Of a stretch of DNA of 64,000 bases, positions 17,057-40,083 are shown in pieces. How positions within the stretch are numbered: the first letter of the stretch is position 1; each line of letters opens with the position of its first letter. The stretch comes from Candidatus Limnocylindrales bacterium (GTDB lineage: Bacteria; Chloroflexota; Limnocylindria; Limnocylindrales; CSP1-4): assembly GCA_038214255.1 (NCBI GenBank), contig JBBQRZ010000009.1, forward strand, positions 25,129 to 89,128. The letters run 5' to 3'. The notes under the pieces were generated by a model. That model was not told where the DNA came from, searched no databases, and saw nothing but the letters and a program-made list of their open reading frames with translations. A program made the translations under genes and the position numbers.

Positions 17057-17156
17057 CTCGCGGCCCCGGCCGCTTCCCTCGCCACGCTGAGGGCACGCCG
17101 ACTGACACCCGCCGGTATCATCCTGCGATCTGGCGATGTTCCGAAGGAGGCCACCC

Positions 17157-17405
17157 ATGCCGCTCTACATGGACCACCACAATCTCCCTGGCGTTAAGGC
17201 GGGCGACGTCGCCAAGGCGCACGAAGCGGACGTTCGGGTGCAGGGACAGTACGGCGTGGATTACCAGCACTACTGGGTCGACGAGGAGGGCGGCCAGGTC
17301 TGGTGCCTGGTCGACGCTCCCGACAAGGAGACCGCGGCGCGCGTGCATCGAGAGGCCCACGGCCTCGAGGCCCACGAGCTCAACGAGGTGAGCCAGGGAG
17401 CCTAG
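17157..17405 (+). CDS. DUF4242 domain protein (SCO4226-like small ferredoxin-fold protein)
   Basis: MPLYMDHHNLPGVKAGDVAKAHEADVRVQGQYGVDYQHYWVDEEGGQVWCLVDAPDKETAARVHREAHG matches the DUF4242 pattern. GGAGG lies 7 nt upstream of ATG 17157. Confidence 0.75.
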   Translation: MPLYMDHHNLPGVKAGDVAKAHEADVRVQGQYGVDYQHYWVDEEGGQVWCLVDAPDKETAARVHREAHGLEAHELNEVSQGA

Positions 17406-36810: not shown

Positions 36811-36872
36811 GATCAGCGGTGGCGTCGATGGTTCGTCACCGATTCGTCGCACGACCGACTTACACTTCGGGC

Positions 36873-37541
36873 ATGAGGTTCTTTAGCTCCAAGCCCCAGA
36901 CCATCCCCTCCCCCACCGAAGCTCTCCCGGGTCGGTCCGAGCCGATCGTGACGCCCGGCGTCCACACGGTCCTCGGCACGCCGATCGCCGGCCCATGGCC
37001 GGATGGCACCCGGACCGCGGTCTTCGGCCTCGGGTGTTTCTGGGGAGCCGAGAAAGACTTCTGGCAGCTCCCCGGCGTCGTCAGCACGGCCGTGGGCTAT
37101 GCCGGCGGCCACACCCCCAACCCGACCTACCGGGAGGCCTGCACCGGCCAGACCGGCCACGCCGAGGTCGTGCAGGTCGCGTACGACCCGTCAAAGGTCT
37201 CGTACGAGCGGCTGCTGAAGCTGTTCTGGGAGCACCACGACCCCACCCAGGGCATGCGCCAGGGCAACGACATGGGCTCCCAGTACCGGTCGATCATCGT
37301 CGCCGCCGATGCGGACCAGCGCCGGGCCGCTGAGGCGACGCGTGATGCGTACCAGGAGCGCCTCAGCGCGGCCGGATACGGCCCGATCACGACCGAGATC
37401 GTCGACGCCGGCCCGTTCTACTACGCCGAGGACTACCACCAGCAGTATCTCGACAAGGTTCCGAACGGCTACTGCCCCAACCACTCGACGGGCGTGACAC
37501 TCCCCGATGTCGTGGTCACGCCGCTGCAATACGTTGGCTGA
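36873..37541 (+). CDS. msrA: Peptide-methionine (S)-S-oxide reductase
   Basis: [13 protein letters not shown] active-site box, then [16 protein letters not shown]-like block, [30 protein letters not shown] and YHQQYL. The N-terminus aligns with long-form MsrA ([10 protein letters not shown]). Confidence 0.95.
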
Positions 37542-37564
37542 CCCCAACCCATATTGCCGGGCAC

Positions 37565-37600
37565 GAAGAGAGCCGGTCGGTCAAGCCGGCCGGCTCTTCG
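37565..37600 (+). terminator. Hairpin after msrA (terminator-like)
   Basis: AGAGCCGG (37569-37576) pairs with CCGGCTCT (37590-37597) around a 13-nt loop, followed by TCGTTCGC. The T-tract is weak. Confidence 0.45.
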
Positions 37601-37692
37601 TTCGCTGTACTCGGGGCAGGCTGTCGAACGCGAGGGCAGCTAGTTCATCCGGCCCAAGGCGGCTGACGTAGAGGGCGATCGAGTCCACTCTG

Positions 37693-37887
37693 TCAAGCGT
37701 GAGCCTCCGTTGCCGTTCGCAGCTTGCGAAGCGCCTTGGCCTCAATCTGTGCGACGCGCTGGGGGCTGATGCGAAGGACGGCGGCGACCTCCTTTATCGT
37801 CCGAGCGTCGCCATCCAGCGAGCCGTATCGCAGTTGCAGGACGAGCCGCTCGCGGTCGGTGAGCGTGTCAGTGCCGTAGACGATCAC
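37693..37887 (-). CDS. Sigma-70 region-4-only HTH protein (64 aa)
   Basis: [49 protein letters not shown] is a textbook sigma70_r4 domain without regions 2/3. Its GTG start overlaps the upstream stop (GTGA). Confidence 0.7.
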
Positions 37888-38084
37888 TTGTCACGCTCGG
37901 CGATGGCCGCCTCTACGTATGCCCGGACTTTCGGCGGCAGGTTGTCGGGCATGGGCACGGTGCCAGCGATGAGGGCGTCAATCGCCATCTGCTGCCCCCT
38001 CGGTGAGGCGTGCCAGACGAGCCCCCGCTTGATGGCGACGCGCAGGTCGTCGGGATCGGATAGGACTAGGTGGAGACACGTCAT
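37884..38084 (-). CDS. Hypothetical protein (66 aa), micro-operon gene 3
   Basis: [70 protein letters not shown] overlap with the upstream ORF. No family recognised. Confidence 0.45.
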
Positions 38085-38329
38085 GACGGCATATCCTCGT
38101 GGCCCGGCCGACGCCACGCCCGAGCTTCAGCCTCGGTGTCGAAGTGGGTGAAGTTGATTTTGGGGAAGCAGGCGCCCGCGTCATACGTATCGAACACCCA
38201 CCAGAGGCCGGGCGGGAACCTGTAGATGCTGAGGCAGAACTTGACGAGCGGGCTCGGGTTAGCGGTGGGCAGGTACACGACCTCGTAGCGCTGAGTCTCG
38301 GGTCGGGGGAACGTGTCGGCCGGTGTCAT
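38081..38329 (-). CDS. Hypothetical protein (82 aa), micro-operon gene 2
   Basis: MTPADTFPRPETQRYEVVYLPTANPSPLVKFCLSIYRFPPGLWWVFDTYDAGACFPKINFTHFDTEAEARAW. ATGA overlap with the upstream ORF. No family recognised. Confidence 0.45.
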   Translation of the reverse strand: MTPADTFPRPETQRYEVVYLPTANPSPLVKFCLSIYRFPPGLWWVFDTYDAGACFPKINFTHFDTEAEARAWRRPGHEDMPS

Positions 38330-38502
38330 GCTCGACCTGCTTTCTCGACTTCGGTGTAATACCAGTACACGGCGGCAAGGGCCACGAACAGCGGTGCCGC
38401 TTCGGCGACCGCGCAGACGACGACTACGAGACGATGCAGGCGGCGATGAACAGGGCGGCCGTCTCGGCGACGATCCGCAGGGCGCCATGCCGGAGGGCCC
38501 AT
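38326..38502 (-). CDS. Hypothetical single-pass membrane peptide (58 aa), micro-operon gene 1
   Basis: MGPPAWRPADRRRDGRPVHRRLHRLVVVVCAVAEAAPLFVALAAVYWYYTEVEKAGRA has an Arg-rich N-terminus and one TM helix. Alternatively, a GTG at 38531 opens a 35-codon hydrophobic ORF (to 38424) that would join this frame by a shift to give a two-TM, holin-like product. Confidence 0.35.
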   Translation of the reverse strand: MGPPAWRPADRRRDGRPVHRRLHRLVVVVCAVAEAAPLFVALAAVYWYYTEVEKAGRA

Positions 38503-38579
38503 GCGATGGATCCGAAATGCTTGCGAGTCACGGGTGACCTCGGTTGGTCGAGCCGACCTGGCCCATTGCCCTATCCCGG

Positions 38580-38685
38580 GTGCGCGCGTTCCTTGACGCG
38601 CACGCGACGTAGCGCGACACGAGGACCGCGCGGCCGGGCGCGCAGAACTGCGCGCGGGCACGCGCGCGAAGTCCCGTGCGCGCAG
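38580..38685. promoter_or_regulatory. Cluster of TGCGCGC-containing inverted repeats upstream of the micro-operon
   Basis: GTGCGCG-N10-CGCGCAC (38580-38603). GCGCGCAG-AA-CTGCGCGC (38638-38655). Further TGCGCGC/GCGCGCA copies at 38581, 38649, 38658-38668 and 38677-38683. Confidence 0.5.
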
Positions 38686-38732
38686 GGGGGCGAGGCACTG
38701 CAATGTTTGCGGCCCGCTGAGCTCCCGAATGG

Positions 38733-39359
38733 CTATTGCCCAGATCCTGGCACCGCTGATCGTGAGGCGATGACGCTGGCCGAACCCTCGCGGGCCAGGA
38801 CCGCCGCCACGACCAGCGCCGCAACCGCGTCCGCCCACCAGAGCCCGAACGCCGCAGCGCCCGCAAGGCTCACGAGACTGATGGCCGCAAGCAGCGCCGC
38901 GACCGCGGTCAGGATGCTGTCCGCCCGGAGCGCGCCACTGCGGAGCGCGGCCGCCACCCGGAACTTCGCAACGGCGAGCGGGGGCAGCACCAAGACGGAC
39001 GCGAACAACAGGACCAAGCTGGTGGACGAAGCTTCGGGATGGGTCTGCTCGGCGAGTGCTCGGACCGAGGCGACCACGAGATAGACCGCGAGCGCGATGA
39101 GCGCCACGCCCACCGCGCCCTCGGCCATTCGTTCGACCCGCGCGGCGCGCTCCGGCTGGCGAGCCTCCACAGCGAATCGCCAGACCAGGGTCACGGACAC
39201 GGCGGCATCAAGGACGGCGTCGCCACCGAAGCCGAGCAGCGAGAGGCTGCCGCTCCGCAGCGCGGAGTAGACGGCAATCGTGCCGGCGACGGCACTCCAG
39301 CCGATGCTGACCATCGAGAGTGCCAGGGCGCGCCGGATGTCCCTTGCACGGGGATGCAT
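38733..39359 (-). CDS. Cation-efflux (CDF-like) membrane protein without a cytoplasmic C-terminal domain
   Basis: Six hydrophobic segments. SGSLSLLGFGGDAVLDAAVS resembles the CDF TM2 metal-site block (SxALxADAxHxxxD-like). 208 aa. Confidence 0.6.
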   Translation of the reverse strand: MHPRARDIRRALALSMVSIGWSAVAGTIAVYSALRSGSLSLLGFGGDAVLDAAVSVTLVWRFAVEARQPERAARVERMAEGAVGVALIALAVYLVVASVRALAEQTHPEASSTSLVLLFASVLVLPPLAVAKFRVAAALRSGALRADSILTAVAALLAAISLVSLAGAAAFGLWWADAVAALVVAAVLAREGSASVIASRSAVPGSGQ

Positions 39360-39432
39360 CGACGCAGCGTAGCGGCGCGTGGGGCCGCACTGTCGCCTTC
39401 GGACGCGACCGGCGCTCCGCTACGCTGTTCGC

Positions 39433-40083
39433 ATGGGCGACGCGCGGCCATCGATCCCGACGGGCATCACTCGCGGCGGCGTCGTGGCGATCGCTCGCGG
39501 GGTCACGCCCGAGACCGCCCGGGCCGTGGCGGACGCTCTCGCCACCGGGGGGGTGGGCGCCTTCGAGATCACGCTCAACGAGCCGATCGATCGGGCGCTG
39601 CGCGGGATCGAGGCCGTGGCAGCCCGATCGCGCGGCCTCGAGGTCGGCGCCGGCACGGTCCTTACGATCAAATCGGCGCAGGCAGCGATCGACGCCGGAG
39701 CAACCTTCCTCGTCATGCCGCACACCGATCCCGAGCTGGTCGACTGGGCCGCGGCGCGCGGGATCGCGGCCTTGCCCGGCGCCGCTACGCCGACTGAGAT
39801 CCTCGCCGCGTGGCGGGCGGGCGCGGCCGCGGTCAAGGTGTTCCCGGCGTCGTCGTTGGGCCCCACGTTCCTGCGCGAGGTCCGGGGCCCCTTGCCGGAC
39901 ATCCCGCTCCTGCCGACCGGAGGCGTGACTGCGGACACGGCCGGCGCTTTCATCGCGGCCGGGGCCATCGCCGTCGGCCTGGGCGGTTGGCTGATCGGTG
40001 ACGGGGAACCGGCCAGGGTCACGACCCGGGCCCGGCAGGTCGTTGCGGCCGTGACCGCCGCCCGCGAGGGACGCCCGCAATGA
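39433..40083 (+). CDS. eda: 2-dehydro-3-deoxy-6-phosphogluconate/galactonate (KDPG/KDPGal) aldolase
   Basis: VVAIARG, FEITLN, GAGTVL, KVFPAS and LPTGGV blocks of class I KDPG/KHG aldolases. ATG 39433 is preferred. Confidence 0.85.
   Translation: MGDARPSIPTGITRGGVVAIARGVTPETARAVADALATGGVGAFEITLNEPIDRALRGIEAVAARSRGLEVGAGTVLTIKSAQAAIDAGATFLVMPHTDPELVDWAAARGIAALPGAATPTEILAAWRAGAAAVKVFPASSLGPTFLREVRGPLPDIPLLPTGGVTADTAGAFIAAGAIAVGLGGWLIGDGEPARVTTRARQVVAAVTAAREGRPQ

Follow-up and report, generated by a model that had tools for sequence, protein, structure and literature searches.

Small overlapping genes ending in a free-standing sigma-70 region-4 domain in an uncultured Limnocylindria genome

On the mobile element Tn916, small overlapping genes encode Sig7, a region-4-like protein of 143 amino acids (aa), and Sig8, which is RsoA-like; Sig7 was recognised through its similarity to sigma-70 region 4 (sigma-4) alone, and Sig8 was missed by ordinary searches (10.64898/2026.10.01.756105). 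Here we analysed a chain of very small, overlapping minus-strand genes, the last of which encodes a bare sigma-4 domain, in a genome from an uncultured freshwater/soil Chloroflexota of the class Limnocylindria. The chain lies between msrA and a gene for a CDF-type transporter, in a slightly GC-poor interval of ~1 kb that we call the islet. The stretch of DNA analysed, hereafter the window, comprises 64,000 nucleotides (nt) of contig JBBQRZ010000009.1 (our C9; positions 25,129 to 89,128) in a 2.8-Mb metagenome-assembled genome (MAG; GCA_038214255.1) with 55 contigs and 70.2% GC. Judged by named msrA neighbours, the MAG belongs to Candidatus Limnocylindria/Limnocylindrales. Our preferred reading, to which we assign a probability of about 45%, is that the chain may be a real, lineage-specific accessory micro-operon in a hypervariable slot, possibly partly decayed mobile-element cargo with a sigma-4-type regulator of its own.

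Coding signal along the gene chain

An earlier first-pass annotation, made from the sequence alone, had drawn four minus-strand open reading frames (ORF1 to ORF4) chained by short overlaps. The coordinates are as it gave them (Table 1), with ATGA overlaps at 38329-38326 and 38084-38081 and a GTGA overlap at 37887-37884, and the codon signal follows the chain. Codon log-odds, with 780 long genes from this genome as the training set, gave +0.40, +0.33 and +0.34 bits per codon for ORF2, ORF3 and ORF4, respectively; in the benchmark, true 60-codon chunks scored 0.50 ± 0.28, and off-frame chunks had a 95th percentile of 0.28. In sliding windows, the best frame ran 2 > 0 > 1 > 2 > 0 and switched exactly at the ORF junctions. 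GC content at third codon positions (GC3) was 0.83 in ORF2, 0.82 in ORF3 and 0.77 in ORF4, with normal periodicity at the first and second positions. Furthermore, GAGG-type Shine-Dalgarno (SD) sites were present upstream of ORF2, ORF3 and ORF0, a further frame described below. Because codon score, GC3 periodicity, frame switches and SD sites all agree, the chained ORFs are coding sequence rather than random open frames. A fifth ORF, at 37688-37581, scored 0.09 and was rejected as not coding-like.

Table 1. Features of the islet and its flanks, in window coordinates
Feature	Position	Strand	Description
msrA	stop at 37541	+	Flank of the islet, convergent with the micro-operon
Hairpin ACGAAGAGCCGG...CCGGCTCTCTTCGT	37563..37601		Stable; read from the sequence and seen in the fold
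ORF4	37887-37693	-	64 aa; GTG start inside the GTGA overlap; weak SD
ORF3	38084-37884	-	66 aa
ORF2	38329-38081	-	82 aa
ORF1	38502-38326	-	58 aa, as drawn in the first-pass annotation
ORF0	38531-38424	-	35 codons; GTG start; first hydrophobic helix; other frame, over the start of ORF1
TGCGCGC/GCGCGCA heptamer array	38581..38684		Forms GC-rich palindromes; lies between the first micro-ORF and the CDF stop (38733)
CDF-type transporter gene	39359-38733	-	Other flank of the islet

The first gene had been described as an Arg-rich, single-pass membrane protein of 58 codons (ORF1). As such a gene, ORF1 is probably wrong: it is doubtful because its N-terminal 26 codons, the Arg-rich part, scored -0.70 and no SD precedes its ATG. 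The alternative offered by the same annotation, a protein with two transmembrane helices (two-TM) that starts at 38531 and is reached through a frame shift, was favoured instead. ORF0 has the SD GAGG 6 nt before its GTG, a GC3 of 0.86 and a codon score of +0.48. Past the ORF0 stop, the coding signal goes on in the ORF1 frame, with the change from frame 2 to frame 0 falling at ~38470-38440, and the coding-like part of ORF1 is its 3' two-thirds (~38424-38326), where the second hydrophobic helix lies. The motif VAE[TA]A[AP]LF[IV]A occurs in both frames, in copies 62 nt apart, that is, 63 minus 1.

The simplest reading of this pattern is an ancestral gene of ~68 codons with two hydrophobic helices and a -1 frame change near 38425-38440. 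Either 1 nt was deleted here or the assembly introduced an indel. Errors of the latter kind are uncommon in this assembly, since large genes such as rpoD (599 aa) and metH (1288 aa) are intact in it. The first gene contained no slippery heptamer that would hint at programmed frameshifting.

The sigma-4 domain and its companion genes

ORF4 matched Pfam Sigma70_r4 (PF04545) with an E-value of 3.8e-16 and 58.8 bits, against a cut-off of 24.1, in line with the sigma-70 region-4 helix-turn-helix (HTH) that the first-pass annotation had seen there. RpoD models were the best of NCBIfam (1e-13 to 1e-15), and the best match in the PDB was region 4 of Staphylococcus aureus sigma-A (4g6d, 1.3e-13). By these profile matches, ORF4 is unambiguously a sigma-70 region-4 domain. 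It is composed of the 4.1 helix and the 4.2 HTH, both of RpoD type, and has neither the first sigma-4 helix nor a linker.

We then compared ORF4 with region 4 of the RpoD of the same genome (C13:56369-58165). The alignment was gapless, with 31 of 51 residues identical, and identity was unevenly spread: 11/14 in helix 4.1, 10/10 in a conserved 10-residue block, 8/18 in the first HTH helix and 2/7 in the N-terminal half of the recognition helix. In sigma-70, as seen in crystal structures of sigma-4 on -35 DNA, R584, E585 and R588 read the -35 hexamer. ORF4 carries P, Q and A at these positions, while Q589, R586 and K593 are kept. Judged from this alignment, ORF4 keeps the core and the residues that would face RNA polymerase, and three of the four -35 base contacts appear to be lost. 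Different codons are used for 13 of the 31 identical residues (42%), and the conserved blocks have been held, indicating that the divergence is old and has been under selection. Identity to distant (Firmicutes) SigA proteins, at 56-61%, was the same as to the genome's own RpoD. The primary sigma factor itself, encoded on the minus strand in a 599-aa frame, is rich in Asp in region 1, and ~200 aa are inserted between its regions 1.2 and 2.1.

Two simple origins for ORF4 were rejected. A recent copy of the host rpoD would not show synonymous codon differences at 42% of identical residues and a SigA that is equally distant. A stump of a full sigma gene was not seen either, as no frame of the islet contains regions 1-3: when the islet was searched by tblastn with the RpoD of this genome, region 4 alone was returned and region 2 was absent, and conceptual fusions of ORF4 with ORF3 or ORF2 improved no sigma model. 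In 5.8 billion clustered proteins, ORF4 matched only itself. Stand-alone sigma-4 genes in relatives were likewise dismissed, the ORF4-like matches in 150 family genomes all being full-length rpoD genes or artefacts (contig edges or one frameshifted rpoD). The same genome holds a second sigma-4-only stretch at C7 ~17060-17330 on the plus strand, flanked by a GGDEF-like gene and a gene for a response regulator. This stretch is of ECF type (46.6 bits with Pfam), has no region 2 and no clear start, and is probably a gene relic.

ORF3, when searched alone against the same 5.8 billion clustered proteins, also matched only itself. A protein search of 300 family genomes detected two relatives of 67-68 aa, in genomes G239 and G314 of one other Limnocylindria genus, and both aligned end to end with ORF3. 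A profile built from these two members scored ORF3 at 27.6 bits, whereas the best of 2000 shuffles reached 8.5, and hhalign gave a probability of 96.4%. The family is thus defined by three proteins of ~67 aa with the motif LxDP...G.xW...Q.A[IV]DA...G.xP...PP. AlphaFold predicted a small helical bundle for ORF3, with a predicted local distance difference test score (pLDDT) of 81; fold searches in the PDB and BFVD gave no significant match and no known antitoxins. The three-sequence profile recovered no additional members when run class-wide and against metagenome and viral sequences.

The layout around the ORF3 family recurs. In both G239 and G314, a two-TM gene of 64-80 aa precedes the ORF3-like gene with a 4-nt overlap, so that a two-TM gene lies upstream of the family member in 3/3 cases, with ORF2 sitting between the two in the present islet. 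Homology was evident between the two-TM proteins of these two genomes, and none was detectable between them and ORF0/1. Neither relative is accompanied by a sigma-4 gene.

In G314, the order is a partial tRNA 3' end (recognised by eye, not called by ARAGORN), unknown genes, the two-TM/ORF3-like pair and, where the contig ends, a tyrosine integrase. The G239 pair is found among genes for a Cas4-like nuclease, a PARG-like macrodomain protein, a UDG-family glycosylase, HipA and VapBC. These contexts are typical of mobile or defence DNA. Two neighbours deserve a separate record. The PARG-like macrodomain gene of G239 (L175:6013-7110, minus strand; Pfam PARG_cat_C, 2.6e-12) is directly downstream of the ORF3-family gene and probably overlaps it. 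In G314, a c-di-GMP-I-GGC riboswitch aptamer (RF03167; 64.8 bits, gathering threshold 59) lies at L176:7645-7719 on the plus strand (G314:C4 ~311945-312018), back-to-back with the two-TM/ORF3-like pair and just upstream of an 83-aa hydrophobic ORF, within what is apparently a tRNA-integrated element with a tyrosine integrase.

Early in the analysis, ORF3 resembled the folate domain of MetH. Genome-wide tblastn gave an E-value of 5e-4 and none of 150 shuffles scored as high; the NCBIfam MetH model aligned to the same region of ORF3, and hhalign against 26 MetH segments gave 92.5%. A domesticated MetH fragment was nevertheless rejected, as the G239 and G314 relatives gave 0.3-0.5%, the family profile fell to 71% and no PDB match to MetH was found. 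Because the true relatives of ORF3 lack similarity to MetH, the resemblance is most likely due to chance.

ORF2 was predicted to form four beta strands and a C-terminal helix, although the AlphaFold2 model had a pLDDT of 63.5. It matched only itself among 5.8e9 clustered proteins, a full HMMER search of 1.84e9 representatives gave nothing credible, Foldseek of the model gave no significant match, and the protein was absent from ~300 family genomes. The first-pass annotation had stated that the middle two proteins match no family; this stands for ORF2 and no longer for ORF3, which belongs to the three-member family. Two candidate assignments of ORF2 were not accepted. As half of a DUF11 Ig-like repeat, it gave 3.5e-5, a value that sums ~10 repeats of one protein, while Pfam DUF11 did not match and the genome has no DUF11 gene. 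As the N-terminal beta-meander of the enolase superfamily, it gave Foldseek E-values of at least 0.9 with a model of pLDDT 63.

Surroundings and distribution of the locus

The islet had been noted as less GC-rich than its flanks, and windowed GC agreed: 65.4% against 70.2 ± 2.6% for the genome, at the 3.8th percentile of 1-kb windows. The drop was sharp on the CDF side only, msrA itself having 67.8% GC. The dip is real yet modest. Integrase, tRNA and clear attachment (att) repeats had been reported missing, and they were missing here too: a tRNA search of the window found none, the ORF list contained no recombinase between msrA and eda, and the flanking 18-mers (15/18 identical) scored no better than shuffles and were dropped as att-like repeats. 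An Rfam search of the islet region gave no match.

Whether the islet had been inserted into the junction was examined by comparison with relatives, as the first-pass annotation had proposed. Within the genus, msrA and the sugar-acid genes eda/kdgK are syntenic, and the interval between them, of 2.6-4.8 kb in the relatives and 1.8-4.8 kb across window 36819-40083 and loci L027-L032, holds different genes in each genome examined, including an oxidoreductase, an adenylate cyclase and membrane proteins. Since each relative examined has a different msrA-eda interval, the cassette occupies a flexible slot and is not a discrete insertion into a conserved junction. The micro-ORFs were found at 0/80 msrA loci from other MAGs, and none of ~300 family genomes contained the islet DNA. 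The islet ORFs gave no match in phage, plasmid, IMG/VR, JGI metagenome and GTDB contig sequences, and neither ORF2 nor a stand-alone sigma-4 gene had a counterpart in anything searched.

The CDF-type transporter on the far side of the islet has 208 aa, with the transmembrane domain present and the cytoplasmic C-terminal domain absent. The gene is patchy, occurring in 7/41 related genomes at the same length of ~200 aa and in unrelated contexts. Truncation by an insertion was ruled out, given that the relatives are equally ~200 aa long.

Upstream of the first micro-ORF, five exact TGCGCGC/GCGCGCA heptamers occur in 104 nt, within 200 nt of ORF0. Nowhere else in the 2.8-Mb genome do four or more copies fall within 120 nt, and the heptamer is otherwise scarcer in the 64-kb window than expected (24 found, ~52 expected). 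The array folds into a long GC hairpin, with a z-score of only -1.7. It could be an operator for a DNA-binding protein such as ORF4, or it may be the terminator hairpin of the CDF gene. At the other end, the hairpin between the convergent msrA and micro-operon is a probable two-way terminator; having no T run, it was missed by the simple terminator scan. A simple promoter scan detected no sigma-70-type promoter.

Interpretation and comparison with described systems

Under the preferred reading of the islet as an accessory micro-operon, the core would be a variant of a very rare module, associated with mobile elements, in which a small two-helix membrane gene is coupled to a ~67-aa helical gene of the ORF3 family. 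In the present genome, the membrane gene would have been disrupted by the -1 change, the orphan, beta-rich ORF2 would lie between the core genes, and a 64-aa RpoD-type domain-4 gene would have been added through the GTGA overlap. ORF4 would then most likely serve the cassette as a small transcription regulator of its own, binding DNA that is not TTGACA, and the TGCGCGC array, 50-150 nt upstream and unique in the genome, is the obvious candidate site; less likely, it may act on RNA polymerase by occupying the sites that sigma-4 contacts. The unit as a whole would be partly decayed mobile-element cargo and not an active prophage. That the DNA is accessory, and probably derived from a mobile element, is supported by the absence of the islet family-wide, the variable slot, and the integrase or HipA/VapBC contexts of the ORF3 relatives.

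Several points weigh against this reading. Neither an integrase nor an att repeat or tRNA occurs in the window. ORF2-4 do not depart from the host range in codon usage, so that calling the DNA foreign rests on its distribution and the mild GC dip. No homology to ORF0/1 is detectable in the two-TM proteins of G239 and G314, and the claim of a shared module therefore rests on ORF3 and the layout. Selection is not measurable in the ORF3 family because it has only three members. The frameshift in the first gene may be an assembly error. Finally, the palindromes may simply be the CDF terminator, leaving the operator role for ORF4 as a candidate one.

A toxin-antitoxin-like or abortive infection (Abi) module, which the first-pass annotation had likewise brought up, is possible but unlikely. 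Here the small membrane protein would be a toxin that damages membranes, its gene now inactivated by the frameshift, ORF2 and/or ORF3 the antidote, and the sigma-4 HTH an autoregulator. The genes are indeed small and tightly coupled with the HTH gene last, each relative of ORF3 has a small two-TM gene coupled to it, one pair within a HipA/VapBC island and the other within an element that carries an integrase, and the frameshift in the membrane gene resembles toxin decay. However, such a layout is by itself weak evidence, and the likeness remained one of layout: searches of ORF0-3 against Pfam, NCBIfam and PADLOC gave no match to a holin, toxin, antitoxin, Abi or defence family, the sole PADLOC match in the whole chain was the region-4 part of MzaA, and ORF3 had no fold match to known antitoxins.

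Non-functional debris would mean decaying gene fragments at a recombination hot spot, in frames kept open by the rarity of stops in GC-rich DNA. We consider this quite improbable. Three-base periodicity and positive codon scores occur exactly in the frames chained by starts and stops, SD sites precede ORF0, ORF2 and ORF3, ORF4 shows a purifying pattern relative to rpoD, and the relatives of ORF3 are full-length and of the same size. The frame-disrupted first gene, the ECF-type sigma-4-only relic at C7 ~17060-17330 and the lack of an ORF2 homologue anywhere searched would fit debris, as did the initial resemblance of ORF3 to a piece of MetH, but that likeness faded from 92.5% to 71% with the family profile and to 0.3-0.5% with the relatives alone.

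A split sigma factor, in which ORF4 would provide sigma-4 and ORF3 or ORF2 an unrecognisably diverged sigma-2-like subunit, has precedents in Sig7-Sig8 of Tn916 and SigO-RsoA of Bacillus subtilis (Sig7-Sig8: 10.64898/2026.10.01.756105). GTGA couples ORF3 to ORF4, and ORF3 is confidently predicted to be a small helical protein. Yet hhalign of 17 sigma-2 segments of the genome against ORF2 and ORF3 gave probabilities of 0.1-0.3%, an ORF3-ORF4 fusion gained nothing in sigma profile scores, and Foldseek of ORF3 found no sigma-2 despite the many holoenzyme structures in the PDB, and that of ORF2 showed none either. Furthermore, the ORF3 relatives occur without any sigma-4 gene, and ORF4 has only 64 aa, with no first sigma-4 helix or linker. 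We also considered a partner elsewhere in the genome: among the 18 Sigma70_r2 (PF04542) matches, no region-4-less candidate emerged, since all have their own region 4 except one cut by a contig end and one of ECF type without a PF04545 match. A split sigma is doubtful, although partners of this type are hard to recognise, Sig8 too having escaped ordinary searches.

Also a long shot is the proposal that the two-TM/ORF3-family pair is an undescribed toxin-antidote or phage-exclusion module to which the sigma-4 domain of ORF4 was recruited as a decoy instead of a promoter reader; it would dock on the beta-flap of RNA polymerase, or on partners that bind sigma-4, thereby switching -35-dependent host transcription. 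If it were true, the locus would be a cellular or mobile-element counterpart of the phage takeover factors that target sigma-4. The remnant of a phage lysis cassette that the first-pass annotation had likened the islet to, with the two-TM protein as holin, is very improbable: a small two-helix membrane protein does head an operon of tiny genes and GC is slightly low, but the window region examined has no endolysin, spanin, or phage structural or replication gene, the PHROG search of all ORFs matched only sigma-4, tblastn and pattern scans of phage and IMG/VR sequences were empty for ORF0/1, ORF2 and ORF3, and the C-terminus is only weakly charged.

Taken as an accessory micro-operon, the locus is of interest in two respects. 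ORF4 seems to have kept the polymerase-facing and core residues while those reading the -35 element were replaced, which would make it a clean test case for telling a DNA reader from a polymerase binder. ORF3 and its coupled two-TM gene define a tiny new family, which in Limnocylindria is linked with integrative elements and with islands rich in toxin-antitoxin genes; this is a class for which we know of no cultured members and no described mobile-element biology. The value of the cassette is limited by its being a singleton in one MAG with one gene broken.

ORF4 is like the sigma-4 of RpoD/SigA (PF04545; PDB 4g6d, 1ku7) in covering the full HTH at 56-61% identity; unlike it, ORF4 is a free-standing 64-aa protein without regions 1-3 or the first sigma-4 helix, is encoded in an accessory cassette, and has P/Q/A at the -35 positions. 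Stand-alone HTH proteins of the GerE/LuxR type (PF00196) are similar in that a protein of ~65-75 aa consists of a sigma-4-like HTH alone, but ORF4 scored 20.5 bits with GerE, below the cut-off of 23.5, against 58.8 with Sigma70_r4. Its sequence is clearly RpoD-derived.

For the membrane gene and its partner, GhoT/GhoS and CptA(YgfX)/CptB(SdhE) are the nearest analogues, reportedly pairs of a small membrane toxin and a soluble partner. The ORF3 family repeatedly shows this arrangement, with a two-helix membrane protein of ~60-80 aa and, coupled to it, a small helical partner, whereas sequence or fold similarity to these pairs is lacking and the gene order differs.

Like Sig7-Sig8 of Tn916, SigO-RsoA of B. 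subtilis and gp55/gp33 of phage T4, the islet has a small region-4-like gene that overlaps a small neighbour in a mobile-type context. Unlike these two-subunit sigma factors, it offers no sigma-2-like partner detectable by profile or fold, ORF3 relatives lack a sigma-4 gene, ORF4 does not reach half the length of Sig7, and the gene order is reversed.

The last comparison is with phages. At IMG/VR loci L126-L140, we found proteins of 200-270 aa without sigma-2 that carry an RpoD-like sigma-4 at the C-terminus (PHROG 351, "sigma factor") and an N-terminal YRIKVxVRNN domain with a weak HTH_3 signal. Their sigma-4 (motif [ST]P[EQ]R[VI]...) shares with ORF4 the Pro at R584 and a Thr after LRKLR, and hhalign gave 98% over 58 columns, although the shared signature was partly selected by the search pattern. 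The YRIKVxVRNN domain is absent from the islet, and ORF2 and ORF3 do not align to it. These loci show phages to be carriers of RpoD-like sigma-4 domains that have been separated from sigma-2. Proteins made of sigma-4 alone are a known kind, as are small accessory modules of coupled genes, and the chain described here has features of both.

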